A DNA stretch of 64,000 nucleotides, taken from assembly GCA_004431415.1 (NCBI GenBank), contig QPMI01000643.1:93496-157495 (forward strand), read 5' to 3'. A model generated the notes under the pieces. It saw nothing but the letters and a program-made list of their open reading frames with translations, searched no databases and had not been told where the DNA came from. The stretch comes from Cyanophora paradoxa CCMP329. Taxonomy: Eukaryota > Plantae > Glaucophyta. This document shows, piece by piece, positions 26,622 through 55,369 of this stretch (positions are counted from its first letter, which is position 1; each line of letters opens with the position of its first letter). A program made the position numbers and the translations under genes.

Positions 26622-26904
26622 ACACATAGTAAAATGCGGAGTTTTAACCCTCGGCTTATCTTAATTGATTTTGTTGATATATCTCGTATATTCTATTTCA
26701 ATCAATCGATAATCTGTGTGTATCTTATCGAATATTCAATTATTTCGATTATTTTGTATTCTTTTCGATATTTTATCGTAAATTTCTCTTATTTTCCGAT
26801 TAGTCTTACTGAGTCTATCGATAATCTCTATATATTTCCGAATAATATAACTGAATCTCAATTAGATCTTGCCTCTGGTTAAAACTCCGCATTTTACTAT
26901 GTGT
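26622..26904. repeat. Terminal 283-nt fold-back hairpin of element B (mirror copy 55087-55369)
   Basis: ACACATAGTAAAATGCGGAGTTTTAACC (26622-26649) pairs perfectly with 26877-26904; the 227-nt interior pairs imperfectly throughout. Confidence 0.9.
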
Positions 26905-27156
26905 GATTGGTCTAAAAGTTAATTGATTTAATCGATATTATATTCATGTACTTTCTCGATTAAATTTATTTAAATTTAATTCATTTAATCGGAAACATAT
27001 CGCTTAACTCGATTAAGATCCATAAATGATTCATTTGTTTATATTAACAAATAGATCTCTTATTGAATCCAATCGTAATTATACATGAAACTTATATGTT
27101 ATTATCATGTTTTAATGAGTCTAAGGGGGGACCCTTAGGAATTTAATGAATAATTG

Positions 27157-27452
27157 GGTGTCACAGGTGTCACAGGTCCATCCCAAACTTTTGAAAATTC
27201 ACTCTTTATAGGAGAAACTTTGGGATAAACCTGTGACACCTGTGACACATACCATATTCAGTAAGGACCTCTTTTATAATGAAAAACTCAGTCATAATCT
27301 TATCTATGTATTTCTAATTAAATGAATAAATGATTTAATCGAGTGTCACAGGTGTCACAGGTCCATCCCAAACTTTTGGAAATTTACTCTTTATAGGAGA
27401 AACTTTGGGATAAACCTGTGACACCTGTGACACATACCATATTCAGTAAGGA
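27157..27452. promoter_or_regulatory. Two iteron-like candidate origin blocks in the TIR (mirror 54539-54834)
   Basis: GTGTCACAGGTGTCACAGGT-CCATCCCAAA...TTTGGGATAA-ACCTGTGACACCTGTGACAC then CAGTAAGG, at ~27158-27266 and ~27343-27452. Confidence 0.6.
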
Positions 27453-27974
27453 CCTCATATATTGTTAAAATCTCAGTGTTAGTTGGTGTAGTTGATTCAA
27501 AAAATGCATTTATACTCTGATTCATTGTTATTTCCTGTGAAATTTGAGTCAACTCAACCCACTTAGTCAACCCTTGCATTGAATTCGTAACAAAATCCAT
27601 ATACTATTACTACTTTTACGATTAATATGAGTCAACCTTGAGTCCACTTAAATATAAATATAATATAATAGGGGGAATCTAGGGGAGATGCTTAGAAACA
27701 TATGAATTATTGAGCCTATGAGACTTACATCGTCACGCTAGCCTCGTTGAGAGGATTCCGAATCTGTTTTTATCTTTGTGAGATGATGAGTTGGTGAAGA
27801 GATACATGCTTTTTAGTGTTTTGTATGGGAGTTTTCGATATGACGTCATCATGACGTTGCATATGTATATGATATATATGACACACGGGCGGACTCGGGA
27901 GATTATGACGATCACGGCGATGTGTTAATTGTCATATTGTTTATGTATATATATTTGGCGCAATCTGATTGGTG

Positions 27975-28610
27975 TGCTTGAAACCACATAATTCGTGCTT
28001 TAAACCACATAATTCGTGCTTTAAACCACATAATTCGTGCTTGAAATCACTTATTAAAAACTAATTCGTGCTTGAAATCACTAATTAAAAGATAATTCGT
28101 GCTTGAAATCACTTATTAAAAGATAATTCGTGCTTGAAATACTAATTGAAAGATAATTCGTGCTTGAAATCACTAATTAAAAGATAATTCGTGCTTGAAA
28201 TCACTTATTGAAAGATAATTCGTGCTTGAAATCACTAATTAAGAGATAATTCGTGCTTGAAATCACTAATTGAAAGATAATTCGTGCTTGAAATCACTTA
28301 TTAAGAGATAATTCGTGCTTGAAACCACTGATTAAAAGATAATTCGTGCCTAAAACCACTTATTAAAAGATAATTCGTGCTTGAAATCACTTATTGAAAG
28401 ATAATTCGTGCTTGAAATCACTAATTGATAGATAATTCGTGCTTGAAACCACTGATTAAAAGATAATTCGTGCCTGAAACCACTAATTAAAAAATAATTC
28501 GTGCTAAATGAAATCGATTACATGATATCGATTACATGAAATCGATTACGTACATGAAATCGATTGCATGAAATCGATTACATGAAATCGATTACATGAA
28601 ATCGATTTCC
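27975..28610 (+). repeat. Compound minisatellite: 21-bp x3, 31-bp x~15, 14-bp x~7
   Basis: Core TAATTCGTGCTTGAAATCAC about 18 times, then CATGAAATCGATTA repeats at 28508-28610. Confidence 0.92.
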
Positions 28611-28831
28611 ATAAAGAATAAAACATTTCGCCGAAGTTTCGCCGAAGTTTCGGTGTTTCGTTTCTCCGCATCTTCAAACGCTTGTATCTCATCACCAGAT
28701 AGTCAACTTGCAGCGTTCTGCATAGCGTTGTGAAGCGCTTGAGAAGATCTACACGTTGATGTGTATATCATATGCATATATGTATATCACACATACATAT
28801 ATTTGGAAAAAACGAGTTTTCGGCTATGAAA

Positions 28832-30217
28832 CTAGCTAGTTTTGGTCCTTTCTCTTAGTGTTCTTTGAGGTTTAGGGGCTGTATATGACTCCTTAGTAGT
28901 CTGAAAGTCATTATACCATCTCTGGCTATTCACTTCTGAAAGTTTCTGTGTCCCTGCTATAGTGAGCTTTTTGAGTTCCCTGCTAACTTTTCCAGCCTTC
29001 TCCTTCCTAGCCTCTATCAAAGGCTTATCTGGGACTTCATTAGCAGCTTCTATGCCTTCTCTCCTTATAGCAGCATCAACCCTAGCTTCCTCTTTAGCTT
29101 GCTCCAAGGCATCCACTGTAGGTGTTTCCAGATACTCAACTGCATTCACAGGCAACAGCTCATGGAATGCAAACCTGTTATCTATGATCTCTCCAGTGGG
29201 ACTCCTTAGCTTAAACTTAAAGCCTTCCCTACTATCAACTGTGTAAACCATCCTAGACCAATTGTTACCCTGTTTAGCAAAGGGGTTTTTCTCAACTTTC
29301 ACTCTAACAAACATGCCAGGCTGCATGGTATCAAGGTAAGCTATTGATTTCTTGAATCTTTCATCTTCTAATCCCACTATATACCTATAATGCTCCTCTG
29401 TAGTTTCGCCTGGCTTCATCTTAGTAGCTGAGTGAACTGTATTATTGTAATTATACTCAATATCACCTAACACATCAAAGAATCTAGCTGTGTTATTAGC
29501 TATGCAGTAGTTTGTGATCAGTCTCTTAATCTGCTTGTTAAAGGCTTCAATTCGACCTTGGCTTCTATGGTCAGCAGTTCCACTCACTTGGTGTTCTATG
29601 AATTTACTAGATAAATACTCCTGGAATATTCGATTTTGGAATTCACTCCCAGCATCTGATTGAACTTTTACTATGGGTCTTGCCACTCTCATTTCAAGCT
29701 GTTTAAATGCAGCTAATGTAGTGAGAGCTGATTTATCCCTTATAGGTATAATATACCCAGTTCTCAGTGTGGATTCCATTGCAGTCATAAAGGTATCATA
29801 GCCATTGTTTTGTTTCTTATAAGCTGGGAAAAAGAGCAAATCAATCACATAGGTATCAAGGGGCTGCCTAATTGGAACCATGGGATCTCTCTTCCTAGAT
29901 ATAGCTGGTGCATTGATCTGAACTACCTCTTGTTTTTTATAGAACTCTTGCAATTGCTTATAGGATTCATCAGGTAACTCAGCCCTCATAGCTTGAAGCC
30001 CTTTGTAACCAGTTCTCACATCATAGAATCTCTTTGCAATCTTGCTGGTTTCTTTCACTGCAATAGCAACTGGGATCTCTACTGGGACAAGCTCTTTCAT
30101 CTCTGATTTTTTGACAATTCGAGATTCCCCCTTTTCCTCCTTTGGAATTGTGATAGGCAGTAGGTTACCTTGCAGTTGCTCAGTGGTTCTCCTAACTATT
30201 CTTCCAGTTGCTGGCAT
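28832..30217 (-). CDS. Polinton-type retroviral-like (rve) DDE integrase
   Basis: YVIDLLFF, VQSDAGSEF, QGRIEAFNKQIK, YNNTVHSATKMKP; uninterrupted 461-aa ORF. Confidence 0.93.
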   Translation of the reverse strand: MPATGRIVRRTTEQLQGNLLPITIPKEEKGESRIVKKSEMKELVPVEIPVAIAVKETSKIAKRFYDVRTGYKGLQAMRAELPDESYKQLQEFYKKQEVVQINAPAISRKRDPMVPIRQPLDTYVIDLLFFPAYKKQNNGYDTFMTAMESTLRTGYIIPIRDKSALTTLAAFKQLEMRVARPIVKVQSDAGSEFQNRIFQEYLSSKFIEHQVSGTADHRSQGRIEAFNKQIKRLITNYCIANNTARFFDVLGDIEYNYNNTVHSATKMKPGETTEEHYRYIVGLEDERFKKSIAYLDTMQPGMFVRVKVEKNPFAKQGNNWSRMVYTVDSREGFKFKLRSPTGEIIDNRFAFHELLPVNAVEYLETPTVDALEQAKEEARVDAAIRREGIEAANEVPDKPLIEARKEKAGKVSRELKKLTIAGTQKLSEVNSQRWYNDFQTTKESYTAPKPQRTLRERTKTS

Positions 30218-30220
30218 CTC

Positions 30221-33200
30221 TTAATTAAAAGGAACAGAATTAATACCATCTGGTAAGATGTATCTCTTTGCATCAAAGCAGTTTAGGGCAACCCTTCTAC
30301 TCACAGTGTCTATTATTGTGTGATCTGCCCTTCTTTTCTGCTTTGCAGTCACAGTCTTGCTGATACCTGCAAATAAACACTGCTTAAAATCATTAAATTG
30401 GAGTTCCTCAGTTGAAGTCCCAGAGAGCTTACTCCTCTCAATCTCAGCAGTTCTGAAACTGTAAACTTTGGCTCTCAGACCCACATACTCCAATATAGCA
30501 GAACCTGGCATTTCATTTTTGTATTTACCTGGGGTCATTCTTGAATCACCTCCAAGGTCCAAAGAATAAGCAATATTCTCTATATCTTTTGCAATGGTCT
30601 TAGATTCAATATATAGACAGAAGGAGTCAGTATCATGGAATAGTAACTTTGCTTTTGTCCATTGGGACCTTACAGTATCATAGAAGAACTGGTAATTATG
30701 CAGTTTGGCTGCATCCAAAACATAAGCCCCAATTGCAACAGGCTTATCTAGTTTCACATGCTTTGTGTAAAACTCAAAGGCAACTGCTTTTTCGTTTATG
30801 GGGCTTGTTGATTTCACCAATGGGGAGGCTGCATATTTCATAAATAGTTTCTCACTGTTTGCAATCTTAACCACAGATCTACCTCTGCAAGATTCAATGC
30901 ATTTCCCATAGATTGAATTATTCATGAGCTTGTAGAAATCAGCCTCGAATTTATTCACTGCTTTCCTTCTCATGTCAGTATTCAGCTCAATATAGGGTTT
31001 CATTACAGGAGCCACAGTAAATGATAGGACCCTGTGAACTTTCTTTAATTTCACCCCTTTGTCCAACAGATATTGCAGAAGAGGCTCAGAAATCACATAG
31101 TTTGTCACAGAACCAAAGGTTGCAGTTAGCTTAGGGGTCTTATCAAGCTCTTCTCCTGAAAGATCTAATAGGCTCTTTTGATATTGTGATAATTCGGCAT
31201 AATCTATTATTTTCTTGTTAATAATTAGGGGAAATCACTGTGATCTAGAAACAGCCTAATTGGGTAATCCAGATCAACTTCTAGGAAACTGGATCTGTTA
31301 TCTTGTGGGTTGAATTCGGTCTCCCATCTAAAATCACCAACTGGAATTGGCTGACTCAAACAGTAGCCATACAAGTTGTTAGCATCAAACAGCATAATGT
31401 GGGAGTTTTCACCATCAGCCTCAGCATACCTACAAGGCATTGTTGCAAAGCCACCCCTGATTCCCCTCTCAACAAATTCGTATTGCTCTACATCACTTAT
31501 AAGCTCTATTTTTGCCTTGGTGGTCCTTAACATAGCATCCCAAGATAACCCAGGGGCAGATACATAATGAACTGGGTCAAGTCCATATACTGAGTGTGAA
31601 AGCCTTCTAAAAGCCTGGAATTTGTTCATTAACTCATCTACATCAGCAGCTCCAAAATCCATGAAATTGCTTGCATCAATGAACTTGTAAAGACCCCATT
31701 GCAATGACAGGTATTGATCAAAGTTTTTCGAAAGGATTTCGATTCGCTTTTTATCACCCATGCCTGCTATTTTTCTGAAAATGAATGTCCCACAGTCATC
31801 CATTTGGTCAACAACCACTGCTACTTTTGTTTGCTTTGAGATTCTCCTATGGAGATTGCAGTTTCTGCATGCAGGTGCAATGTAATTACCTGTGTGGTGA
31901 TCATGATCCCTGCATTTGAAGTTCTCCTTAGTGAACCTCTCACTGCAAAGGTAACATTGTTTGGTAGCTCTGTAAATTGCTTTCTGCTCATCTGTGAGTT
32001 CATTCATAGGAATATTGGTGAACAGGAAATCGATCAGCTCTCTTGCTTTGATTTCCAAGCATTCAAACAGACCTCCCATTGGATCCTGACCCTCAAATCG
32101 AAAATCTTGAACATCTTCCCCAGTGACTACTCTAAGGTTCACTGCTGAGACTTCCCGCTTGGATTTCGATGCATCAATGGGGATGCTTCTATGTTCAATC
32201 TTGCAGTAAACCACAACAGGAAGCCACACAGTTTTCCTGAGGTTTTTCAGTCCAAACTCTATGGTGGTCTCAGGTTTAGGGGTGATTCCCTTTGAGAGTC
32301 TCCAATCAATGCATCTGTTTGAGTCCACATGAGCAGTGAGTTTAGCCTCAGACCTGAATCGAGATAAGCATGTATCACAGTAGTGTAACTTTTGATCCTT
32401 GGTTTTATCAAGGGCAACTCTGAGAAGTCTTGAAAGGGACATGATTGTAATATAGTGACCATTCCCTTCATCATCATGAATGAGCATGAGATTAATCTTT
32501 TGCTTTCTGCCTGGGTTGCTGGATTGATGCAGTGGATATATAACATCTCCATCCATTCCAAAGATGTTTATGCTAATGCCTGCATTTTGAGCTTCGAATT
32601 TATCAATGATTTCAGCATCACAAGGAACAGGGAATGGGATATTGTCGAAATTGAGAGCCAAAGGATTGTATGTGGTTGGTGAGTATTTCCATTTGCGATA
32701 TTGTGTAAGCTCACTTCTCTTGTGGGAATTTACATCTTTCCTATGGATCCATGCCAAAATGGCATTTTCAAAGCAAGAATCATCAATATTTCGAATATTC
32801 ACTGTGGCTCTCTTGGCTGCAATTGATTCTGGTGTTTTAACATAGCAGCCACCAGTTGGGGCATAACTCATAATAGCAACTCTTAGCATTTCGATTCTCT
32901 CCAATCGATAGCTATCAACAACATTCATCTGTTCCTGACACATTTGGGCTGCTTTATTCAGCTCAGTTCGAATATTTCTCGATTTGGTTAATACAAAATA
33001 ATCGCTGTAAATGTATTTCGATATCCAAACCTGTGGATTGCTGACTTTTACGAACTTGCAGATAAACGACAAGCGAACTTTGATTGCCCTGAATTGATCC
33101 AGACTATCTCTTAAACGTTTTGGTAGAGAGGTTGCAATTCTATCTAAATATTCAATCACATCTACCACAACTTCCCTTCTGGCTCTGTATGTGAGCCAGC

Positions 33201-33465
33201 GATATAATTCATTCATGGCTGTTCCATCTTCTGCCTCTGGTTCTATTTGCCTCAGGCGATCGAGTTCATCAAGAGTCTCAACTTTGTCATAGAGGTTATT
33301 GGCTTTTCTGGTTAATTTTGCTAAAGTGGGTCTGCCCCTTGAAATAAATCCGATTTCCCGGTCATATTCAGCCTCTGTGATTTCATGGGCTGCATACAGT
33401 GTTCCCAGTAATCCCATAAGTTCCCATTTCTTCTCTCTAATGAGTCTGTTGCTAATTCGGGGCAT
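30221..33465 (-). CDS. Protein-primed family B DNA polymerase (one frameshift at 31228-31231)
   Basis: OTU-like region (NIDDSCF...GHY), C2H2 finger, endonuclease VII-like insert (CYLC...RDHDH..G.Y...AC..CN), motifs DANNLYG, KLMNNSIYGK, DTDS, GLRAKVY. Confidence 0.92.
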
Positions 33466-33574
33466 AGTTCCTAACTTGTTCCTACTAAAAGGGGAGGTTT
33501 TAAATGGGGAATTCTGAACACAAAATTTGATGAAAACTACTTAAAGAAATATCTTCTATATATATAAAAGGACA

Positions 33575-34390
33575 ATGGCAGAGAAGAAATCGTATTGCCT
33601 GGAAAAGCTCAAAGCGGCTTTAATGTTGCTTTGTGGATCTGATAACTTCAATGATTATGTTGCTCTTGGAAGTAACAGGAAACCGCTCCCTCTTTGGGCA
33701 AAGCTTGCAAAATATGGATTAAGTGACTATGACCTGCCTCCAGAGTCTGAGCATTGCGCCTGTGATCATCCAATTAAAGAGCAATGCTATATTCTGCATG
33801 TTAATAAAAAGATTGTGGTCATTGTTGGGAATTGCTGCATTTTACGATTTATTCCAAAGGGTGCCAGAGGTCAAGATATATGTGAAAGATGTGGAGATCG
33901 GCATAAAAACCGAAAGGATAATTTCTGTAATAAGTGCAGAATCGCTTTAAAGCAAGAAGAACTGGAAAGAAAAAGAGAACTTGAAAAACAAGAGGAAGCT
34001 CGAAAGAGGCAGCTTGAATTAGAAGAAAGAGAGCGAAAACAGAGAGAATTAGAACAAGAAAGAGCAAGGAATAAACATGCAGTTAATCTTTTCCTGATTT
34101 GGTGCAACCAATTTATTCCGAAAATGGATAATCTTCGCAGAGATGATATAGAGAGGTTCAGAGAGGGCAGATCTGCATTGATTGAAATGTATGCAGGACT
34201 CAGTACAACAAATACATTGGTTGCTGGGTTTCAGGTGCCATATCTCAAAAAGGATATTGCAAAAGGACTAGATTGCAGATGGAATAAGGACAAGAAAACA
34301 TGGGAGACCTTGGAAATCGAACCATTTGTAGCATTGCTAGGTAAGCATTTCAAACTAATGTATATTGAGCGATTTGGACAAAGAGGTTAG
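33575..34390 (+). CDS. Cys-rich, coiled-coil viral protein with C-terminal DUF5710-like motif
   Basis: CACDHPIK..C, VGNCCI, CxxC pairs, VPYLKKDIAKGLDCRWNKDKKTW. Confidence 0.7.
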   Translation: MAEKKSYCLEKLKAALMLLCGSDNFNDYVALGSNRKPLPLWAKLAKYGLSDYDLPPESEHCACDHPIKEQCYILHVNKKIVVIVGNCCILRFIPKGARGQDICERCGDRHKNRKDNFCNKCRIALKQEELERKRELEKQEEARKRQLELEERERKQRELEQERARNKHAVNLFLIWCNQFIPKMDNLRRDDIERFREGRSALIEMYAGLSTTNTLVAGFQVPYLKKDIAKGLDCRWNKDKKTWETLEIEPFVALLGKHFKLMYIERFGQRG

Positions 34391-34446
34391 AGAACAAAAA
34401 ATGATTTAAAGAATTCTCTATATATATTAAGAGAGACAGAGGAAAA

Positions 34447-34701
34447 ATGCCACTCAGTGAAGCCCAGAAGAGAGCTATGAAGAGATATCAGCAAACTGAA
34501 AAAGGTAAGGCTAAAATCAAAAAGTTTAACGAAAAAATAGCCACACAGCTAAGAGATCTATATAACAATGATGATACTTATAGAGCCATGAAAATAGCCA
34601 GTTCATGTCAGCGAAAGTATGCAGCCAATGCAGTCTGCTTTGTCAAGTATTTGTATGATGTCCCTTACTCAAATCGAGGGAGAAAATCGAAACATGTCTA
34701 A
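34447..34701 (+). CDS. Small basic viral protein (possible DNA binding)
   Basis: MPLSEAQKRAMKRYQQ; preceded by the shared TTAAAG...TATATA motif. Confidence 0.65.
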   Translation: MPLSEAQKRAMKRYQQTEKGKAKIKKFNEKIATQLRDLYNNDDTYRAMKIASSCQRKYAANAVCFVKYLYDVPYSNRGRKSKHV

Positions 34702-34912
34702 ATTATTTTTCCCAGCATATTACTAGGCTGGGATATGCTGTTTATTCGCTGAAATACTACTTTATCGTTTTTGTATCTGAACCACTCGATATATCATGTG
34801 GATAAATTTCGTAGGGATACTTTCTCGATTTCCAACAAAAAATGATTGGGGGACCCAAAACTACTTAAAGAAAAATCTTCTATATATATAAAAGGGACCC
34901 CGATCGCTGAAA

Positions 34913-37239: not shown

Positions 37240-37280
37240 ACAAAACGATTTATGATTGAAATGTATATGTAATTTTATAG

Positions 37281-37391
37281 CCTTACTGGAAATGGTGTTG
37301 TTCACAGGTGTCACAGGTCCATCCCATCTAGGGGGCTATAAAACGAAAAATGACCAGGGGACGATAAAAACCTGTGAACACCTGTGACACC
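37281..37391. promoter_or_regulatory. Internal iteron-like candidate origin directly downstream of the helicase
   Basis: CCTTACTG...TTCACAGGTGTCACAGGTCCATCCCA...AAAACCTGTGAACACCTGTGACAC, same architecture as the TIR blocks. Confidence 0.65.
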
Positions 37392-37458
37392 TATCGAAAA
37401 AGACCAAAATTTGACAAGAATACTTAAGGCTTACTTGATTGTGTATAGTGAAGACAAA

Positions 37459-37680
37459 ATGGCAAAGGCTCTTGAAGAGATGACCATGACTGAGTTAGAT
37501 AAATGCATTCAACATGGAGATATTGGGGCATATATCGAAATGTCAGAAAGATTGATAGGTTACAATTTGTATGCAGCAAAACCAAAGAGGAATAGATCAG
37601 TGAATATTCACATTACAGTCTCAGTGTCTGAGAATGCAAACAAAAAACAACAAAAGCATATTTACAAAAGTTATCTGTGA
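37459..37680 (+). CDS. Small hypothetical viral protein
   Basis: ATG at 37459 downstream of AAAATTTGA...ACTTAAGG motif. Confidence 0.5.
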   Translation: MAKALEEMTMTELDKCIQHGDIGAYIEMSERLIGYNLYAAKPKRNRSVNIHITVSVSENANKKQQKHIYKSYL

Positions 37681-38013
37681 CTTGATTGCAAGTATAAAGC
37701 CAATTCCTTTGTATATAGTTTTATAGCTGCCTCAGTAGCATACTGAGACCGCTTTTTCTCGATTATCTTATAGACCTGGGGGTCCATTGCTACTTTCAGT
37801 TGGCAAATAATATTTAATCGGTCTCCCTCTGGGTCTCTGCTCCTCTTTTTGGGCTTTTCTGCGATAATAGGATGCCAGGGCTTGTTGTTTCTTATACTCT
37901 CTATATGCTGGGTCATCTCTATATCGTTTCTGCATTGCCAGAATGTGTCTTATAGACCCCTCAGTAACAGGTTCATCACTGGTAAACTCGATTAAACTAA
38001 TAGTGTCCTCCAT
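37671..38013 (-). CDS. Small basic AT-hook protein (probable frameshift at 37778-37782)
   Basis: YYRRKAQKEEQRPRGRP; the two overlapping ORFs join at a G/C run. Confidence 0.55.
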
Positions 38014-39025: not shown

Positions 39026-39053
39026 TGTATCTTTATTAGAATGAGAGATAATT

Positions 39054-42334: not shown

Positions 42335-42363
42335 TCTTCTTTTATCTATATTTATATATTAAA

Positions 42364-44841: not shown

Positions 44842-44884
44842 CTTTTACTTATCAGGAATTTTATAAATCCATATAGTAAAAGCC

Positions 44885-47800
44885 ATGAGCTTCAATTACC
44901 CACCAAATCTAGAAACCATTCAAGAGGATAATGCAAGCAGCACCAAGCATGTGAACTTTGATAATATTAAAGTAAAGGGTTCAGTTTCAATTGACCACAG
45001 CTCTGATAATTCATCAAAGACTCAATCAAGGGAGCATGCTTTATCTGTGAATCAAACCGATCCAGATAAAGAGGAGGTCAGTGTTGCTTTTAGTTTGGGT
45101 AATGTGAAAGCAAACCAAGTGGCAGAGATCAAAGCAACAAGAAGGAGACCTAGGAAACTAAAAACCAGTGGCACTCACCCAGATATACCTTCCAGGTTCG
45201 ATAGTGGTCGATTGATTTTCAATGTTCAAGATGAGCAGGGCAAACAGAACACAGCTTTGCGAATTTACAATGAGGGCAGCACTGCAAAAGCTGAGGTCCC
45301 CCAAGTATTGCAAGTGGGTCCCATTGCCAACACAAATCAGGTCTCCTACACAAATGATGTATACCCCAAGGATATTACATATGACTTTGCGAGGAATGAG
45401 CCTTTTGGGTTTTTTACTCCAAAAGATGTCCATCAAAAAAAGCCATCAATTACAATCAACAGTAGCCCCAGTCAGCCAGTAGCAATCCATTTACACCCTG
45501 ATTTAGTCGAAATGGATAGGCACCTTTTGCCTTTGTATAGCAATGTGAAAGACCTTGGAATTCGAACCAGGCAATGGCGAAATATCCATGGCAGCAATGT
45601 GTATGCAAATGGAGAGAAGCTTGTAAGTGAGAAGACCATAAGAGAGATCTTTGAGTATTATGGACCTGTCCCAGTTCCCTTCCCTCTTCCATGGGATCCA
45701 CCGGATTTAACACCGAAAAAGCAACCAGGCAGAGAGTACACAGCAGATGAGACAGTTCCTTTTGGGCAACACATTGTTAGTTGGGAGCAAGTTCGCAATA
45801 AACCTATCTTCGAACCGAAAAAGCAAATAGATGAGCAGTATTTACCTCCTGAAGTCGATATATTAGAGCTTGATGAATATCAATTCGTTCCAGATGAGGA
45901 AGAGTATTTACCAGATGGTTTTGACCCACAAGAGTATGAATATGATCAATATGACCCAAATGAGGAGGAAATATTACCAGATGGCTTAGATCCACAAGAG
46001 TATGAGTATGAGCAGAACTATGAACCTGATGAGGAGTATTTACCAGATGGTCATGATCCACCAGCTGTTGACTATGAGCAACCTTATGAACCCCATGAGG
46101 AATTATTACCAGAAGGTTTGCAGCCTGAGGTTTTTGAGATCTTCCCTGACTGGGAGCAGATTAACAATAAACCTGCAAGGTATCCACCAGAGGACCACAA
46201 TCATGATTGGGATGAGATCTTAGGCAAACCTCAAAAGTATCCACCAGAGGATCACAGGCATGATTGGGGTGATATTGATGGAATACCAGAAGAATTTCCA
46301 CCAAGCAAACATGAACACACTTGGGATGAGATTAATGACCAACCAGAGTTCGCAAAAGTGGAGCCTTTGGCAACCCTAGGGGTTTCTCTTTACCAGACTT
46401 GCAATGTCCCTGAAAGGATCTTTTTGAATGAACACTATGTACATGTGAATGGGACACTTGCGAATTCAGCTATGAGAGGACCACTTCATATTAGGACATT
46501 ACCAGGCTCTTATGAAACCCCACCTGAACCAGGAGCAACCATACCAAATATCTTTGTGTCAAGCTACATGGAGGCTGACATACCCACAGATACTTTTAGA
46601 GTCCCAACAGACCCAGCAACCTACCAAAATTACAACTCTGCTATACAGGTTCATGTAGCAGATGTAAGCAGTTTAGATGGCTCAAGACCAATGATAGTTT
46701 TCAGTCGAGATAAGTATTCCTACATTCCCATAGTGGGAACTGCAAATGATAACTATGGGAGGGCAGAGCTTGCATGGATTAAAACAGATTATGGTGGGGT
46801 TCTGGAAGCCAATCAGAGGATGGCTGCAAAAAACATACACAACGAGAATATATCAAGAGTGGTCACAGAGGATTACCTTACTGCTGTAATACTTGTAAAT
46901 TTCGTAACTCTTGCTATGCTTGGAGATTATGTAACAAAACCTGAACTTGCAGATGAATTATCAAAATATCTTCCGCTTGTTGGTGGGACAATCACAGGAG
47001 ACCTTACGGTTAATAGTAATATTTACAGTAGCAATATAGAGACCAGCAACCTGAGAGTGAATGGAATTCTTACAGTTGGTTCAGGCAATTTTAATACCAT
47101 GAATCAACTTTACAGGGAATGGTATTCTATTACAGCAAGTAATGATCCCGCTTCAAATATTCCGAATTGTCTTTTTGCTTGGAAAGCATCAGGGGTTCAT
47201 GGTCAAAATGCAGCATCAACAATTCTTTACAATAGGGTCTCCTCAATCGTTCCATCTATAACTGTGAGTTCCACAGGAAGTCCCTACTACTCATCCAATA
47301 TCGCTATAAATAATCAGATGACTTTAACAAGCGATTCAGGGAACTACTCAGCAAACTCAACGATGACAAGAACGATTGATTGGTCACAAGGTTTGACATT
47401 CTTCTATATTGGAAGATATCATTTAACACAAACAGGTGCTTCTCATACACATTTGAGTGTGCTAAAAACAACATCACCAACGCGATTAGCCTACTATGGA
47501 GCAAATAATTCAACAAGATTAGGGACAACTACTTTCGCTATAAATGGTGTAACACAACCTCCAATTGCTGTCACAGTTCCCTCTTTGGTAAATAAATGGT
47601 ATTACTCAGACCAAACAATAACTTCTACAAGCTACACAGTGGGGCTAAATGGTGTCGATGTGGGAACTCTCACAGGAATTAATAATTATTTACCTGATTC
47701 CACTATAAACAATTTTGGATTTGGAACAATATTTGCGGGAAGCATTGCTGAGATTATTGTATTCAACAGAGCATTAACCACAGCAGAAAAACAACAAGTA

Positions 47801-50800
47801 AGGTATTACATCCAACAAATGTATGGATTCCCCAATACTCAACCTCTGACCATTTACAGAGGTTTAAAGATCACATCACCCGATACAGTGATCGATTATC
47901 TCACTGTAACAAGTAATGCTAATCTTCCTCATCATCCAACATCGAATGTGGTTCAAGGTTGGATACAAAACCACACACACACCAAAGATCAGATCACAGA
48001 TTTCGCCCATACTCACACCAAAGATCAGATCACAGATTTCGCCCATACTCACACAAAAGATCAAATAACAGATTTCGCCCACACACACACAAAAGATCAA
48101 ATTACAGATTTTGCCCATACTCACACCAAAGATCAGATCACAGATTTCGCCCATACTCACACCAAAGATCAGATCACAGATTTCGCCCATACTCACACCA
48201 AAGATCAGATCACAGATTTCGCCCATACTCACACAAAAGATCAAATAACAGATTTCGCCCACACACACACAAAAGATCAAATTACAGATTTTGCCCATAC
48301 TCACACCAAAGATCAGATCACAGATTTTGCCCATACTCACACCAAAGATCAGATCACAGATTTCGCCCATACTCACACCAAAGATCAGATCACAGATTTC
48401 GCCCACACACACACAAAAGATCAAATTACAGATTTTGCCCATACTCACACCAAAGATCAGATCACAGATTTTGCCCATACTCACACCAAAGATCAGATCA
48501 CAGATTTTGCCCATACTCATTTATGGGAGCATATCACAAATCCTCCGTTAACCTTTCCACCAGATTCACACACTCATGATTATTCCGAAATCACAAACTC
48601 TAACCACAAACACCCATGGAGTGAAATAGATGAAAAACCACGTTTTGCATCAACAGGTGATTTAGTAAATGGTGACGGATTTTATGGGGTTAGTTTCTAT
48701 CAGAGTGACACCATTCCTGAAAGATTACAATTAAGTGAATACTATTTGCACCGAAAAGGAATAGACGCAGGCACCACAATGGATGGCGAATTATACATTA
48801 AACAACCTTCAAGATCTCAAATGGTTTCAGCAGGTGGGGTGGGAGTTATAGATACTAAACCAGGTCTGTTTTTGACAAGTTATTATAATGAAGATATCCC
48901 ATTAACAGCAGGTTTACCTCCACTTCCATTAGATCCAGTGAGTTATGATGATAAAGACGCCATCTTACAAGTAAACGTTACAGATGTAAGCGCAACCGAT
49001 GGATCAAGACCGAAAATAATATTTAGTCGCTCGAAATTCAATTACGCACCACTTGTGGGACAACCAAAAGATGATTTCGGGAAATGTGAGATGGCGTGGA
49101 TCAAAACATTAGCAGGTGGCGCCTTAGAAGTCAATCAGAGAATGGCGGCAAAAAATTTACACAATGAGACCCTTTCAGGTGTTGTCACAGATGATTACCT
49201 TGAAAGCAAAAATTATGTAGACGATACAGAACTTGCAGCAGTTCTTGAAGATTATGTGACAAAATCAGAACTTGATGTATATGTGACTGAACCTGAACTT
49301 AATGTAGCATTATCTAATTATCTTCCTCTCACAGGTGGAACCATCACCAGCAACTTGGTTGTGACAAGCAACCTAACAGTTGGAGGGAAAATTCAAATGG
49401 GAACCGGAAGCTATTTAGAATCTTATAGTGAAAATTTTTATCGAATCACTTCCAATTTTGATCCAGCTTCTAATATTCCCAATTGTATTTTTGCATGGAA
49501 AGCATCAGGGGTTCATGGTCAAAATGCAGCATCAACAATTCTTTACAATAGGGTCTCCTCAATCGTTCCATCTATAACTGTCAGTTCCACAGGAAGTCCC
49601 TACTACTCATCCAATATCGCTATAAATAATCAGATGACTTTAACAAGTGATTCAGGGAACTACTCAGCAAACTCAACGATGACAAGAACGATTGATTGGT
49701 CACAAGGTTTGACATTCTTCTATATTGGAAGATATCATTTAACACAAACAGGTGCTTCTCATACACATTTGCGTGTGCTAAAAACAACATCACCAACGCG
49801 ATTTGCCTACTATGGAGCAAATAATTCAACAAGATTAGGGACAACTACTTTCGCTATAAATGATGTAACACAACCTCCAATTGCTGTCACAGTTCCCTCT
49901 TTGCTAAATAAATGGTATTACTCAGACCAAACAATAACTTCTGATAGCTACACAGTGGGGCTAAATGGTGTCGATGTGGGAACTCTCACAGGAATTAATA
50001 ATTATTTACCTGATTCCACTATAAACGATTTTGGATTTGGAACAATATTTGCGGGAAGCATTGCTGAGATTATTGTATTCAACAGAGCATTAACCACAGC
50101 AGAAAAACAAAAAGTAAGGTATTACATCCAACAAATGTATGGATTCCCCAATACTCAACCAATCTTAACTCGGGAAATTCTGAATATTATCGGCAAAGAC
50201 AGATTAACACTTAGCAATTTGGAGATACCCACACACACTCACACAAAATCACAAATAACAGATTTTGCCCACACACATTCCCGATTAGAGATACCCGATT
50301 TTGCACACGTTCACACAAAAGATGAGATTTCAGATTTTGACCACACACACACATGGAATAGTATAACAGATAAGCCTGTAACATTCACACCTTCACCACA
50401 TCTACATTTATGGAGCCATATTACGGATAGACCCACCTTAGCAGCAGTTGCGACAAGCGGAAATTATGATGATTTAATTAATAAACCAACATATACAGCA
50501 CCCACAAATTTCGATGCTACAAGTGGTATTTCCACAGACCGCACAGGTGATTGGAGATTTTTTACATTCATATCTCCTTACTCAGGAGCAAACACATGGG
50601 CTTCTGGTGATGAAGATTGTAGTGGCTACAAGATGTTATGGACTGTCCCCGCGGGAATGAAGACATGCTATATCTTCTATGTGTGTCAATACAATAGTAG
50701 ATACTTTGATGTTGTGGGAGTTTATCCATCAACAAATTCTTATACACTTTCGAGAGTAAATGCTTATTCTCCTGGTAGTGACCCAAGTGTAGAGTATAGG

Positions 50801-51631
50801 CAATATGTCGGGGTAAATTGTGAAGGGCTGAGTAAAGTTGGTGTTCAAGGGCGAATTGGAAGGATTTACCTTGTGGGTCTTGTTGGTTGGAGTAAAAATC
50901 CTGCTGTATCATCACACAGTGGCTTCTTGCATTGGGATAACATTTACGGGAAACCAACAGCTTCCACAACTGTCGGACCTCACTCTCACACTAAATCAGA
51001 TATCACCGATTTTGCACATACTCACACAAAGGCAAATATAACAGATTTCGCCCATACTCACACGAAATCGGAAATCACAGATTTCCCAACCTTAGACCCA
51101 TTTGTAGCAAATACGATCACAGCAAATAATACCATGTATGTGGGATCCGGTCAAATTTACCAACCAGACTCTCCTTTATTCTACGAACAGTGGTTCTTCC
51201 ACAATTCCGCGAACATATACGATAAAACACTATTATGTCGGGGAAATGCTTACGCAAGAGCATATTATGCAATGGATGAAACAGATAATGGTAAGATTGC
51301 GAAACTTGTTTCAGAACAACGGGTCAATAAGGATCAGTATATACAGACAGGGAGTTTTTCAAAATCCTTAGCAATCACAGGTCCGGGTCATTGGGGATTT
51401 CCACAAGTTGTCACATTCCCAAAAGCGTTTGCAGAAGCCCCAGCAGTCGTTCTCAATTTAAGAGATGGGTATAATGGTGGTTCATATGTATTGGTATATG
51501 GTGTCACAAGTTCCACAACAACAACATTTACTATTTATGCAACAATTTCGGCAAATAGAGAATACAATGAAAGCATTGGACTTTTCCACTATCAAATGAC
51601 TTATATTGCAACAGGGAAGATGGTAGCATAG
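44885..51631 (+). CDS. 2248-aa fibre/adhesin with His-x-His repeats, two LamG-like domains and a C-terminal lectin-like domain
   Basis: AHTHTKDQITDF repeats, YLPLxGGTITG shaft motifs, GSIAEIIVFNRALT twice, VTFPKAFAEAPAVV. Confidence 0.8.
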   Translation: MSFNYPPNLETIQEDNASSTKHVNFDNIKVKGSVSIDHSSDNSSKTQSREHALSVNQTDPDKEEVSVAFSLGNVKANQVAEIKATRRRPRKLKTSGTHPDIPSRFDSGRLIFNVQDEQGKQNTALRIYNEGSTAKAEVPQVLQVGPIANTNQVSYTNDVYPKDITYDFARNEPFGFFTPKDVHQKKPSITINSSPSQPVAIHLHPDLVEMDRHLLPLYSNVKDLGIRTRQWRNIHGSNVYANGEKLVSEKTIREIFEYYGPVPVPFPLPWDPPDLTPKKQPGREYTADETVPFGQHIVSWEQVRNKPIFEPKKQIDEQYLPPEVDILELDEYQFVPDEEEYLPDGFDPQEYEYDQYDPNEEEILPDGLDPQEYEYEQNYEPDEEYLPDGHDPPAVDYEQPYEPHEELLPEGLQPEVFEIFPDWEQINNKPARYPPEDHNHDWDEILGKPQKYPPEDHRHDWGDIDGIPEEFPPSKHEHTWDEINDQPEFAKVEPLATLGVSLYQTCNVPERIFLNEHYVHVNGTLANSAMRGPLHIRTLPGSYETPPEPGATIPNIFVSSYMEADIPTDTFRVPTDPATYQNYNSAIQVHVADVSSLDGSRPMIVFSRDKYSYIPIVGTANDNYGRAELAWIKTDYGGVLEANQRMAAKNIHNENISRVVTEDYLTAVILVNFVTLAMLGDYVTKPELADELSKYLPLVGGTITGDLTVNSNIYSSNIETSNLRVNGILTVGSGNFNTMNQLYREWYSITASNDPASNIPNCLFAWKASGVHGQNAASTILYNRVSSIVPSITVSSTGSPYYSSNIAINNQMTLTSDSGNYSANSTMTRTIDWSQGLTFFYIGRYHLTQTGASHTHLSVLKTTSPTRLAYYGANNSTRLGTTTFAINGVTQPPIAVTVPSLVNKWYYSDQTITSTSYTVGLNGVDVGTLTGINNYLPDSTINNFGFGTIFAGSIAEIIVFNRALTTAEKQQVRYYIQQMYGFPNTQPLTIYRGLKITSPDTVIDYLTVTSNANLPHHPTSNVVQGWIQNHTHTKDQITDFAHTHTKDQITDFAHTHTKDQITDFAHTHTKDQITDFAHTHTKDQITDFAHTHTKDQITDFAHTHTKDQITDFAHTHTKDQITDFAHTHTKDQITDFAHTHTKDQITDFAHTHTKDQITDFAHTHTKDQITDFAHTHTKDQITDFAHTHTKDQITDFAHTHTKDQITDFAHTHLWEHITNPPLTFPPDSHTHDYSEITNSNHKHPWSEIDEKPRFASTGDLVNGDGFYGVSFYQSDTIPERLQLSEYYLHRKGIDAGTTMDGELYIKQPSRSQMVSAGGVGVIDTKPGLFLTSYYNEDIPLTAGLPPLPLDPVSYDDKDAILQVNVTDVSATDGSRPKIIFSRSKFNYAPLVGQPKDDFGKCEMAWIKTLAGGALEVNQRMAAKNLHNETLSGVVTDDYLESKNYVDDTELAAVLEDYVTKSELDVYVTEPELNVALSNYLPLTGGTITSNLVVTSNLTVGGKIQMGTGSYLESYSENFYRITSNFDPASNIPNCIFAWKASGVHGQNAASTILYNRVSSIVPSITVSSTGSPYYSSNIAINNQMTLTSDSGNYSANSTMTRTIDWSQGLTFFYIGRYHLTQTGASHTHLRVLKTTSPTRFAYYGANNSTRLGTTTFAINDVTQPPIAVTVPSLLNKWYYSDQTITSDSYTVGLNGVDVGTLTGINNYLPDSTINDFGFGTIFAGSIAEIIVFNRALTTAEKQKVRYYIQQMYGFPNTQPILTREILNIIGKDRLTLSNLEIPTHTHTKSQITDFAHTHSRLEIPDFAHVHTKDEISDFDHTHTWNSITDKPVTFTPSPHLHLWSHITDRPTLAAVATSGNYDDLINKPTYTAPTNFDATSGISTDRTGDWRFFTFISPYSGANTWASGDEDCSGYKMLWTVPAGMKTCYIFYVCQYNSRYFDVVGVYPSTNSYTLSRVNAYSPGSDPSVEYRQYVGVNCEGLSKVGVQGRIGRIYLVGLVGWSKNPAVSSHSGFLHWDNIYGKPTASTTVGPHSHTKSDITDFAHTHTKANITDFAHTHTKSEITDFPTLDPFVANTITANNTMYVGSGQIYQPDSPLFYEQWFFHNSANIYDKTLLCRGNAYARAYYAMDETDNGKIAKLVSEQRVNKDQYIQTGSFSKSLAITGPGHWGFPQVVTFPKAFAEAPAVVLNLRDGYNGGSYVLVYGVTSSTTTTFTIYATISANREYNESIGLFHYQMTYIATGKMVA
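47972..48520 (+). repeat. 36-bp coding tandem repeat, about 15 copies (AHTHTKDQITDF)
   Basis: Direct reading; synonymous variants recur in a higher-order pattern. Confidence 0.95.
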
Positions 51632-51671
51632 ATATTCGTTTATTTTTCTATCCTTCTTAGTAAAAGAAGCA

Positions 51672-52517
51672 ATGGGTGAATATAATCGAGTTCAACTGCC
51701 TATATATTCCCTTGGATCCCCTGCAATGCATTTTCGCCAGCATGAAGTAAATGATGAGGTTCGTGGTTTAGAATCCACAGAGAGACCCAATTCCAATGGC
51801 AACTCCTTTGATAAAAATTCGATTATTCGAGTTAAAGAGCTGAGAGCTGATAAGAATTCTGGTGTGGTTAAAACAACTCGACTTCTTGTCACCAATGCTA
51901 ACTTCTTCCAGCCTACAAATGGAGGTCCTGATGCTTACAGTGTTGCCCTGAAAACCCTAGATTTCGACAAGAATACTGCTGCTGTTACTGTGAGATCAGG
52001 AGGAGCATTTATTGGGGGTGGTTGCAGAGTGTCAGGTCAACTCTCATCCTCCATTTCGTATAATGATGTCCCAGATACTCTAGAGCAAAATGTGGAAGAC
52101 CCCCAACGAATTCGATTATATACTCCTGTCGCACAGCAGCCATTAATTCAATTTTACATTGGATATACTGTTACTCTTGAAAACTCGGAATTAATTGAAG
52201 GAACCAAAAGAGTACTGAGAGGTCTTGCGATTCCATCTGCAATGCTTTCCCTTTGTAGAGCCAACAACAATCAAGTAGGTCATAAATACTATTTCAATGT
52301 TCAGGGATATAATCATTTCGGTTATGGCTACTGTGTTTATAATAATAATTTCACCTTTGACTTGTTTGTTACAGATATTGGGTTATATACTATAACTCTT
52401 ATCGGTTTGAGAACAGATATAGCCGCTGTATCAGCTCTTAGAGGTGTAACTCCTGATACTCTTTCAGTTACAGGGTTTTACATGGAGCCAGATGTAATTG
52501 ATGACCCAACCCCATAA
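51672..52517 (+). CDS. Hypothetical virion/fibre-associated protein, paralogue 1
   Basis: Shares GL.STE...ELR.DKN.G.VKTT.LLVTNANF...SGGA.IG.G.RV.G with the next ORF. Confidence 0.7.
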   Translation: MGEYNRVQLPIYSLGSPAMHFRQHEVNDEVRGLESTERPNSNGNSFDKNSIIRVKELRADKNSGVVKTTRLLVTNANFFQPTNGGPDAYSVALKTLDFDKNTAAVTVRSGGAFIGGGCRVSGQLSSSISYNDVPDTLEQNVEDPQRIRLYTPVAQQPLIQFYIGYTVTLENSELIEGTKRVLRGLAIPSAMLSLCRANNNQVGHKYYFNVQGYNHFGYGYCVYNNNFTFDLFVTDIGLYTITLIGLRTDIAAVSALRGVTPDTLSVTGFYMEPDVIDDPTP

Positions 52518-52540
52518 AAGATATATCCCTTTAATGTAAA

Positions 52541-53374
52541 ATGGCTGAGCAACCCCCACTTGAACGAATTATTACACCACAGCTATCATTAGCTGCCCCA
52601 GCAAACCATGTTCTGCAGCATGCTACTTTTGATGATGTGGAAGGTCTCCAATCCACAGAGGTCCAACCTACAATGAACACCTTTGGTTCCACCCACAAAC
52701 TGAGATTACAGGAACTCAGATGTGATAAAAATAATGGAATAGTTAAGACAACTAAGCTACTTGTCACAAATGCAAACTTTTCTGCTCATTATGGAGACCC
52801 AGATAGCTATGGAGATCCTCTGTCTACTTATTCTTTTGAATCTAGGTCGGGAGCTATTAACTGCAAATCGGGGGGAGCTTATATTGGTGATGGTCTTAGG
52901 GTTGGTGGGGCTGTTGGAGCGCCTTTATTTGTGAATGATCAACCCAATCCCATTGATCCTAACACCAGAATTCGAACCTATGTCCCCAGCATGAATGCCC
53001 CCTATATAATCAAAATATTCCCCATTGTGGTAAATGAACAGACAGCAGTTGTAGACTCTCTTGTTGAGATTGGTGACCACTACAAGGTTGTTGTGGATAT
53101 TCCACCAGATGTATATGCTGTATGTCAAGTGGAGGGTGGAACTCCTAATTTTGCAGTTGTGATCACCCCATATGATAATTTCGGAATTGCTTATCATGGA
53201 GTCAATTTTGGTTTGGAAGATTATCAGTTCCTGGTTAGAGCCACCAAGTTTGGTATCTACAAGTGTGTATTATATGCTGAGAGAACTGATTTTATTGCAA
53301 AGCAGAATACCTATGCTGAGTACTATGGCACTAATCGATATTTCCCCATTTTTGGGCAGGATACTGCTCCATAA
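52541..53374 (+). CDS. Hypothetical virion/fibre-associated protein, paralogue 2
   Basis: Tandem paralogue of 51672-52517. Confidence 0.7.
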   Translation: MAEQPPLERIITPQLSLAAPANHVLQHATFDDVEGLQSTEVQPTMNTFGSTHKLRLQELRCDKNNGIVKTTKLLVTNANFSAHYGDPDSYGDPLSTYSFESRSGAINCKSGGAYIGDGLRVGGAVGAPLFVNDQPNPIDPNTRIRTYVPSMNAPYIIKIFPIVVNEQTAVVDSLVEIGDHYKVVVDIPPDVYAVCQVEGGTPNFAVVITPYDNFGIAYHGVNFGLEDYQFLVRATKFGIYKCVLYAERTDFIAKQNTYAEYYGTNRYFPIFGQDTAP

Positions 53375-53396
53375 GAATATTGGTTATATATAGAGT

Positions 53397-53669
53397 ATGG
53401 ATAGTAAAACAAAAAAGTTTATTGATGCTGCTATGACAGTTCATGGTAAAGATAAATTCGATTACAGTGAGACACATTACATCAAAGCTCAAGAGAAAGT
53501 ATCTGTTAGATGTTTGCAGTGTAATAAGGTGATCCTTACCTATCCCTTTAATCATGTGAAGGGATCAGGTTGCAGGGAATGCAACAAAAAACATTCTCAG
53601 GCTTACAGGAAAAGGGCTTCTTCATCAATCACAGTGGAATATAGGGATGTTTGCATTAGGTTCGATTAG
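53397..53669 (+). CDS. DUF723-like zinc-finger protein
   Basis: FIDAAMTVHGKDKFDYS...Y...C..C...P.NHVKGSGCREC. Confidence 0.65.
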   Translation: MDSKTKKFIDAAMTVHGKDKFDYSETHYIKAQEKVSVRCLQCNKVILTYPFNHVKGSGCRECNKKHSQAYRKRASSSITVEYRDVCIRFD

Positions 53670-53698
53670 GTTTAATTAATTTTTATAAGGTATTCTTA

Positions 53699-54097
53699 AT
53701 GGAGACTCAATACAGAGGCTTTCATGTAATGCTTGATTACAAGGCTAAATCAGCTATTGCAACAGGACATGAGCATGTTAGCTTCCTAGGTAATTGGATT
53801 ATGGGAACCCTTGAACAAGCAATATTGAGACAAGGTATTAGGATTGTTCATAAACACTGTGAGATATTTGATGGCAAACTATCACCTCCTGGTTTTGCTT
53901 TGGTTCTGCTATTAGATGAAAGCCATTGTACAGCTCATTGTTATTCCAATGAAGGCATGTTAGCAATTGATATATTCAGTTGTGGTAAAGAAGCTCAGCA
54001 TAAAACACAATCAGTAGCAGATGAGATCGATAAAACAATGAATTTCTTAACATTTGAGAAGACTGAGAGACATAAACATGATAGATTCCCGTTTTGA
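53699..54097 (+). CDS. speD: S-adenosylmethionine decarboxylase proenzyme (short pyruvoyl-dependent type)
   Basis: GFHVMLD, PPGFALVLLLDESHCTAHCY..EGMLAIDIFSCG with the E-S autocleavage site. Confidence 0.85.
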   Translation: METQYRGFHVMLDYKAKSAIATGHEHVSFLGNWIMGTLEQAILRQGIRIVHKHCEIFDGKLSPPGFALVLLLDESHCTAHCYSNEGMLAIDIFSCGKEAQHKTQSVADEIDKTMNFLTFEKTERHKHDRFPF

Positions 54098-54147
54098 TGG
54101 GTTTCTATAATGAATTTCTAAAGGATTCCTTTGTTTTCTAACAATAA

Positions 54148-54212
54148 CATTGATAAGCTACTGTAACAAAAAGATATAATATATCCTTTCACTACAGTAG
54201 CTTTATACAATG
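54148..54212 (+). terminator. Hairpin downstream of the last rightward gene (candidate transcript 3' end signal)
   Basis: AAGCTACTGTA (54155-54165) pairs with TACAGTAGCTT (54193-54203), extendable to CATTG/CAATG. Confidence 0.4.
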
Positions 54213-54304
54213 ATTATTTTCCGGATTCCGGACATTTTTTACGATAGAATTCTATTGTAAGTAATTGGAATAATGTTCGATTTCATTACAGTAAAACTCA
54301 ACAT

Positions 54305-55369
54305 TCCCCTAGATTCCCCCTATTATATTATATTTATATTTAAGTGGACTCAAGGTTGACTCATATTAATCGTAAAAGTAGTAATAGTATATGGATTTTG
54401 TTACGAATTCAATGCAAGGGTTGACTAAGTGGGTTGAGTTGACTCAAATTTCACAGGAAATAACAATGAATCAGAGTATAAATGCATTTTTTGAATCAAC
54501 TACACCAACTAACACTGAGATTTTAACAATATATGAGGTCCTTACTGAATATGGTATGTGTCACAGGTGTCACAGGTTTATCCCAAAGTTTCTCCTATAA
54601 AGAGTAAATTTCCAAAAGTTTGGGATGGACCTGTGACACCTGTGACACTCGATTAAATCATTTATTCATTTAATTAGAAATACATAGATAAGATTATGAC
54701 TGAGTTTTTCATTATAAAAGAGGTCCTTACTGAATATGGTATGTGTCACAGGTGTCACAGGTTTATCCCAAAGTTTCTCCTATAAAGAGTGAATTTTCAA
54801 AAGTTTGGGATGGACCTGTGACACCTGTGACACCCAATTATTCATTAAATTCCTAAGGGTCCCCCCTTAGACTCATTAAAACATGATAATAACATATAAG
54901 TTTCATGTATAATTACGATTGGATTCAATAAGAGATCTATTTGTTAATATAAACAAATGAATCATTTATGGATCTTAATCGAGTTAAGCGATATGTTTCC
55001 GATTAAATGAATTAAATTTAAATAAATTTAATCGAGAAAGTACATGAATATAATATCGATTAAATCAATTAACTTTTAGACCAATCACACATAGTAAAAT
55101 GCGGAGTTTTAACCAGAGGCAAGATCTAATTGAGATTCAGTTATATTATTCGGAAATATATAGAGATTATCGATAGACTCAGTAAGACTAATCGGAAAAT
55201 AAGAGAAATTTACGATAAAATATCGAAAAGAATACAAAATAATCGAAATAATTGAATATTCGATAAGATACACACAGATTATCGATTGATTGAAATAGAA
55301 TATACGAGATATATCAACAAAATCAATTAAGATAAGCCGAGGGTTAAAACTCCGCATTTTACTATGTGT
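54305..55369 (-). repeat. Right terminal inverted repeat of element B
   Basis: Mirror of 26622-27686, followed by TSD TTCATA. Confidence 0.95.

Follow-up and report, generated by a model that had tools for sequence, protein, structure and literature searches.

Endogenous Polinton-like viruses (PLVs) of the glaucophyte Cyanophora paradoxa are already catalogued, with 366 major capsid protein (MCP) genes listed for this alga, in two clusters outside the named groups (PMC10120064, Table S4). The available tables of PMC10120064 and PMC12220804, their columns read by position, annotate 156 elements of this host, of which none is entered with a protease in any of nine columns, 85 have rve, 49 PF03175, 40 D5_N, 89 a lipase and 66 an S-adenosylmethionine decarboxylase (AdoMetDC). 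A discoidin-patatin fusion has been described for glaucophyte PLVs, and related contigs were mentioned in 2021. Krupovic and colleagues have proposed, on the basis of two lineages that retain almost nothing of the exonuclease domain, that its loss from the protein-primed DNA polymerase B (pPolB) accompanies the gain of a helicase; such loss is published for mavirus, with its separate superfamily 3 helicase (S3H), and for fusions of pPolB to a superfamily 1 helicase (pPolB-S1H), and compensation by the helicase was proposed (PMC11071308). A survey of 20,702 integrase-linked pPolB1 sequences reports conserved motifs in all taxa surveyed (10.1101/2023.08.22.554363).

Here we describe element B, at positions 26622 to 55369 of a 64,000-nucleotide stretch of C. 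paradoxa CCMP329 (contig QPMI01000643.1, positions 93,496 to 157,495; hereafter the window). B is a complete, TIR-bounded PLV genome (TIRs being terminal inverted repeats). We consider it likely that its own rve integrase recently placed it in an older sister element, A, and that the breaks in its reading frames are sequencing errors; its polymerase is predicted to lack proofreading. As an insertion B is ordinary, probably an intact, young endogenous PLV of a catalogued family, and its element type and gene mix are already known. Its most unusual feature is the dismantled exonuclease of its pPolB, which a first-pass annotation of the window, made from the sequence alone, had missed.

Boundaries and replication genes of element B

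Element B is 28.7 kb long, with viral genes enclosed by terminal inverted repeats (TIRs) and a target site duplication (TSD).

26616 to 26621, plus strand: left copy of the TSD (flank comparison)
26622 to 27686, plus strand: left TIR, 1,065 bp (self-comparison of the window)
54305 to 55369, minus strand: right TIR (self-comparison of the window)
55370 to 55375, plus strand: right copy of the TSD (flank comparison)

The first-pass annotation had described identical TIRs, a perfect TSD and an absence of internal stops, and each point holds: the TIRs are 100% identical over 1,065 bp (the blastn match runs one chance base longer), the same 6 bases stand at both ends, and 21 of 21 frame pieces, amounting to 23,922 coding bases, contain no stop. 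B sits in the final codons of the penton-like 2 gene of A, whose frame resumes beyond B. That B is intact and recently integrated, as was claimed from these features, is the best reading of the locus, though short of proof for this individual copy.

The genes and repeats that bear on replication are the following.

30221 to 33465, minus strand: pPolB with terminal protein, vOTU, exonuclease remnant with EndoVII insert, and palm motifs A, B and C; break near 31228 (homolog alignment; fold of relative P0007)
Near 32200, minus strand: Exo I site of pPolB; Exo II near 31800; deletion between about 31669 and 31620 (homolog alignment)
34913 to 37239, plus strand: Prim-Pol, D5_N and S3H; break near 36932 (profile searches; short-read contigs)
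27159 to 27432, mirrored at 54559 to 54832, unstranded: two palindromes of paired inverted 9-bp iteron-like repeats in the TIR (15 matches against 0 in 100 shuffles)
37300 to 37392, unstranded: degenerate internal copy of the iteron-like palindrome, directly after the primase-helicase gene (repeat scan)

Of 160 pPolB homologs, the 120 that were listed are Polinton-type, many of them with an EndoVII insert, and the nearest polymerases are of the Alpha-adintovirus type. One relative, P0007 (1,083 aa), aligns with the protein of B over its full length at 46% identity. Neither protein retains the Exo I aspartate, the Exo II asparagine and aspartate, the conserved K-G-x-F-P-Y block or either Exo III residue, all of them being altered or deleted; among the 119 other listed homologs the Exo I aspartate is kept in 114, the Exo II asparagine in 115 and aspartate in 118, and the Exo III tyrosine in 119 and aspartate in 118. 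The spacer that bears Exo III measures 17 residues in B and P0007 versus a median of 111, and about 95 residues, Exo III included, have been lost. Polymerase motifs A, B and C and the vOTU Cys/His are retained in the two proteins, as are the terminal-protein and EndoVII motifs in that of B. The predicted fold of P0007 (pLDDT 90.8) matches phi29 polymerase (Z 18.8, rmsd 3.2, 482 residues aligned), with upstream domains that resemble a Y-family little finger (Z 9.2) and, at a middling score, OTU (Z 7.1), an architecture that has been described for Polinton pPolBs. These alignments lead us to predict that the pPolB of B lacks proofreading.

The separate PrimPol-S3H gene adjoins pPolB, and B is likely a further, independent case in which exonuclease loss is paired with helicase gain. 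We infer independence from mavirus because the pPolB relatives are of the EndoVII type. The polymerase phylogeny that the first-pass annotation had recommended pairs B with P0007 on a long branch (38 of the 120 homologs, the N-terminal piece of B and a distant IMG/VR element, L001; quick method), at 0.63 changes per site on each of the two branches, but this tree is unrooted, has no mavirus row and cannot show independence. A literature search found no description of exonuclease loss or iteron-like repeats in this family; the Zenodo data of PMC12220804 and part of the PMC10120064 supplement lay outside it and may bear on the point.

Each TIR of B holds two sets of paired inverted 9-bp repeats; the left end of A has them too, and a single degenerate set lies internally in B. 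TIRs have been proposed as origins for primase-helicases in other PLVs, and we read the iteron-like repeats as likely helicase-loading sites. The first 28 bases of the left TIR recur inverted at 26877 to 26904, and each end of B is able to fold back (z -11.6, for a stretch picked for its arms); A has a terminal palindrome too.

We propose that B would be excised or copied out as linear DNA, after which pPolB would use its own terminal-protein domain as primer at the ends of the TIRs and vOTU would cleave that domain off. Unwinding of the DNA, and perhaps re-priming, would fall to the separate PrimPol-S3H, which would likely load at the palindromic iteron-like repeats of the TIRs and make up for functions that disappeared along with the exonuclease domain. 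Genome packaging would be the task of the A32 ATPase, into a double jelly-roll capsid that bears fibres and two penton-like proteins and is formed without a maturation protease, and the patatin-discoidin protein may help in binding and membrane entry. More tentatively, and with a probability we would place somewhat below even, B may belong to an active glaucophyte lineage midway through a third independent exchange of proofreading for a helicase, having kept the exonuclease shell and EndoVII while losing the catalytic acids, and having captured a primase-helicase and an iteron origin, so that a mutator replicase feeds hundreds of diverse proviruses.

Mavirus includes a lipase in its gene set, a point in favour of a further reading, in which B is a provirophage like mavirus, dormant in the alga until giant-virus infection and then replicated in the factory of the infecting virus. 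The functional set of rve, exonuclease-less pPolB and separate S3H is also that of mavirus (PMC11071308), giant-virus insertions have been reported in C. paradoxa (PMC12344493), and such behaviour is described for PLVs of other algae. However, the capsid resembles those of nucleocytoplasmic large DNA viruses (NCLDV) and PLVs and falls outside the virophage columns, no protease was found, and a literature search found no helper virus. We regard this lifestyle as possible but rather unlikely; concerning lifestyle only, it is compatible with an intact, recently inserted PLV genome.

Frame breaks and competing explanations

Besides those in pPolB and the primase-helicase gene, breaks were placed in four further features.

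37674 to 38013, minus strand: two short overlapping frames; break at 37778 proposed (open reading frame list)
39902 to 41271, minus strand: MCP; break near 40894 (56-65% to P0001; Atlas 0.98 to Capsid_N clusters)
41325 to 42334, minus strand: penton-like protein 1; break near 42252 (81% to the copy in A; motifs in common with penton-like 2)
43286 to 44841, minus strand: patatin-like lipase, then F5/8 discoidin domain; break near 43640 (Pfam; short-read contigs)

The first-pass annotation counted six breaks, each cured by one added base, and read them as homopolymer errors. Homology places frame switches near 31228 in pPolB (by P0007), near 40894 in the MCP (by P0001) and near 42252 in penton-like 1; A is in frame at the latter two sites, as had been stated. 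The patatin-discoidin break, assigned earlier to a GG near 43659, is instead in the G run at 43640. The short-read comparison called for by the same annotation shows that contigs of the family (DNA runs X1 to X3) are one base longer at 31227, 36931, 40893, 42251 and 43639 among the 12 of 24 indel rows listed, which upholds five of the six breaks, albeit without tying them to this locus; 37778 has no homolog and is absent from those rows. The longer form accounts for 5584 of 5626 of the depth at 31227 in X1 (X2 has no cover there), for all depth at 36931 in X2 and X3, for 80-96% at 40893, for 47-100% at 42251 (all in X2) and for 70-80% at 43639.

All five read-supported breaks are losses, with no gains, and lie in G/C runs of length 3 to 5, which make up only 418 of the 1,415 coding runs of at least 3 (P ~0.002). 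In PacBio consensus sequence, most errors are deletions of one G or C within runs of 4-6 (PMC8574707), and artefacts of this kind have been described in protist viral insertions (PMC10120064). An intact young insertion is favoured because the supported breaks (5/5) match this error type. Real decay should also have left stops and TIR mismatches: a model that assumes 10 substitutions per indel expects 2.8 and 5.3, respectively, and we saw 0 and 0 (P 0.06 and 0.005). We hold it quite probable, on a par with or slightly above our confidence in the overall interpretation, that the breaks are long-read sequencing errors.

Several observations weigh against this interpretation. The single-copy host flank is clean, with 23 of 24 listed DNA contig pieces free of gaps, and by comparison with run X2 none of its 315 G/C runs is too short, as opposed to 5 of the 292 G/C runs of B (Fisher p 0.025). 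Assembly-wide homopolymer error, tested on this flank, was not seen, and sequencing error must accordingly be assumed to have escaped polishing inside repeats only; the bias towards G/C runs fits the homopolymer explanation offered by the first-pass annotation. A clean flank would fit polishing that succeeds in unique DNA but not in repeats, as mapped short reads served to correct the published assembly by majority rule, yet this is an added assumption; if the window derives from that assembly, such polishing could also inflate the identity of the TIRs. Since the short-read contigs pool tens of copies, often without the haplotype of this one, and many sites differ in every contig, open frames are shown for the family, not for this locus; at 42251 the longer form reaches only about half of the summed depth in X1 and X3. 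P0007 may come from the same host species, and we infer, rather than observe, the roles of the repeats and the helicase.

These points lend some weight to the view that B is young but damaged, carrying real single-base losses that arose when its non-proofreading polymerase slipped shortly before insertion, or that the host introduced later, while sister copies carry working genes. An exonuclease-less polymerase should slip more, single-copy host DNA has no such gaps, and the contigs are not assignable to this locus. Yet every supported break is a loss in a G/C run, though A/T runs are 2.4 times commoner, stops and TIR mismatches are absent, and the neighbouring A, which differs in age, has the same type of break in its MCP (near 57393; another lies in its penton-like 2 at about 55830-55848). 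All depth supports the longer form at 36931 (X2 and X3) and at 42251 (X2), although contigs drop rare variants. We judge a damaged copy improbable. Less probable still is that pPolB is a relic being lost and PrimPol-S3H the true replicase, with the iteron-like repeats as origin: many PLVs replicate by an archaeo-eukaryotic primase with S3H (AEP-S3H) alone (PMC11071308), the palindrome recurs directly behind the primase-helicase gene and PF03175 is matched in only 49 of the 156 glaucophyte elements tabulated, but B and P0007, at 46% identity, both retain motifs A, B and C and the vOTU dyad, and the P0007 model is a well-formed polymerase.

Remaining genes, family copies and genomic setting

The other features of B and the parts of A are as follows.

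27956 to 28605, plus strand: 31-bp tandem array, non-coding (repeat analysis)
28832 to 30217, minus strand: rve (DDE) integrase, 461 aa, unbroken (Pfam rve 2.6e-4, below cut-off; IS481-type DDE model 4.7e-12; DDE residues present)
33575 to 34390, plus strand: Cys-rich protein, 271 aa, weak DUF5710 match (Pfam, 1.7e-4)
34447 to 34701, plus strand: basic protein, 84 aa, no family in profile searches
37459 to 37680, plus strand: open reading frame (ORF), 73 aa, no family in profile searches
37997 to 39025, minus strand: protein of 342 aa, no family and no protease signal in profile searches
39054 to 39836, minus strand: A32-type packaging ATPase, unbroken (Pfam Pox_A32 5.9e-14)
42364 to 43296, plus strand: penton-like protein 2, unbroken (best PDB match 6ncl P1, weak at E 0.093; DUF5901 E 0.015)
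44885 to 51631, plus strand: fibre-like protein, 2,248 aa, phage tail repeats, internal 702-bp duplication, unbroken (profile searches; self-comparison)
51672 to 53374, plus strand: two related ORFs, 281 and 277 aa, no family in profile searches
53397 to 53669, plus strand: ORF of 90 aa resembling a domain of HNH-type endonucleases (PHROGs 1.6e-8)
53699 to 54097, plus strand: AdoMetDC (Pfam 5.1e-11)
24886 to 26621, unstranded: left part of A, with terminal palindrome (24886-24980), iteron-like repeats and penton-like 2 tail (sequence comparison)
55370 to 57776, unstranded: right part of A, with penton-like 2, penton-like 1 and MCP start, 76% identical to B, ending at a long terminal repeat (LTR) retrotransposon at 57777 (sequence comparison)

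The closest MCP relative, P0001 (tig00020904_g15213, C. paradoxa), is listed as an MCP by HHpred match, and another listed MCP starts almost like that of B (PMC10120064, Table S4). The Atlas score of 0.98 is recognition below the strong threshold of that tool, the MCP profile found no capsid match among PDB sequences, and a single-sequence fold prediction of P0001 was of low confidence (pLDDT 34). P0003 was rejected as a relative, being a repeat-rich false match; true relatives make up 5 of the 6 rows, query included. The two penton-like proteins are weakly identified as such from their sequences. The combination of rve, pPolB and primase-helicase without an adenain-like protease, pointed out by the first-pass annotation, agrees with profile searches, and no Ulp1/adenain protease was detected in B by Pfam, NCBIfam, PHROGs or a motif scan, the largest free gap outside the tandem-repeat region being 219 bases. 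A very divergent protease may hide among the unnamed ORFs; the 342-aa ORF gave no usable Atlas lead (0.88). A Ulp1 protease at 19243-21516 was rejected as that of B, since it lies outside A and B and its best match in B has E 0.17. In the fibre gene, the 702-bp duplication (47143-50160; 16 differences between copies) and a 36-bp tandem array (47971-48519) all keep the frame. Three consecutive plus-strand genes (33575, 34447 and 34913) have in common a TATA-repeat motif 15-35 bases upstream of the start codon.

Tens of related copies are under purifying selection: coding variants comprise 33 synonymous and 5 non-synonymous changes (n=38, from the best-supported 40 of 649 substitution rows), where 22% synonymous would be expected, and A and B differ over 107 MCP codons by 29 synonymous and 6 amino-acid differences. 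Contig depth ratios, which are rough and not copy counts, were 26-30 relative to the lowest-depth family contigs and 40-82 relative to GC-rich host contigs. Summed contig depth over the primase-helicase block (33236-37771) is several times below that of the blocks for capsid and integrase, which would fit a block carried by some family members and not by others, although depth is a poor measure. Run X19 covers genes and spacers equally thinly (depth 0-4) and is uninformative for expression. Searches of viral contigs with the ATPase of B, and of metagenome contigs with its pPolB piece, found no related locus; P0007 found among viral contigs the single distant element L001, which over 33-12480 encodes a Polinton-type pPolB with exonuclease-type motifs kept and, by eye, capsid-, penton- and ATPase-like ORFs.

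Intron-rich host genes at 75% GC (1-8200) open the window, mixed repeats follow (8300-24885), and an AT-rich viral island occupies 24886-57776, with the LTR retrotransposon from 57777 on. The island is nested: a retroelement-like ORF (23831-24901) received A, A in turn received B, and the LTR retrotransposon entered the MCP gene of A at 57777; the remainder of A may lie beyond the window edge. CpG observed/expected is 0.40 in B versus 1.01 in host DNA, C. paradoxa methylates repeats and viral genes (PMC12344493), and integrated copies are likely silenced through host CpG methylation. Outside A and B, a retroelement-like region (19243-24885) has an RNase H-like stretch (weak Pfam match) and a Ulp1 domain (Peptidase_C48, 5e-12); three neighbouring minus-strand ORFs at 14701-17337 (265-348 aa, ~53% GC, no Pfam match) read like fragments of one large extracellular or structural protein; and the host genes (1-8232) include one of C2/EF-hand-like type and an adenylate/guanylate cyclase gene with leucine-rich repeats, where short introns are numerous and several appear, by eye, to have GC donors.

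Relation to described systems

The interest of B is moderate and lies in a polymerase without proofreading paired with a second replicase. B is likely a third lineage, caught at an intermediate stage with two replicases side by side, and makes the proposed trade-off testable. A further implication is that, of the hundreds of viral insertions in this model glaucophyte, many may be intact instead of decayed, and that young proviruses can seem dead through long-read errors left in repeats.

The closest systems are the endogenous PLVs of C. paradoxa itself (PMC10120064, Tables S2 and S4; PMC12220804, Table S6), which share with B the capsid family, rve, pPolB, a D5-like helicase, lipase, AdoMetDC and discoidin-patatin; as in B, neither protease nor tyrosine recombinase is entered for them. 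The mix of Maverick and PLV traits seen by the first-pass annotation is thus real but already tabulated for this host. In the available sources these elements are counted and annotated only, and a lost exonuclease, iteron-like repeats or the integrity of single copies are not described. With the Polintons/Mavericks (Polintoviricetes, with pPolB of the Alpha-adintovirus type) B shares TIRs with a 6-bp TSD (5-6 bp in the group's definition), rve, a TP-vOTU-pPolB with palm and EndoVII, an ATPase and a double jelly-roll MCP; it differs in its dismantled Exo I-III, the Ulp1/adenain protease that was not found, an extra PrimPol-S3H and a very distant capsid. It has what the broad definition of a PLV names (PMC12220804): MCP, a putative minor capsid protein and ATPase without protease, a length within 14-40 kb, and TIRs. 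Mavirus and its endogenous forms have, like B, rve, a pPolB without a working exonuclease and S3H on a separate gene (PMC11071308), a functional likeness and not membership, for B has no MCP of the type seen in Maveriviricetes and no protease of theirs was found, and virophage MCPs number 0 among the tabulated elements of the host. Finally, B resembles the pPolB-S1H (Tlr1-like) PLVs in exonuclease loss with helicase gain, and the AEP-S3H PLVs in that replicase, and these PLVs in having no protease; unlike them, it keeps its helicase unfused to pPolB and has both replicases present along with rve.

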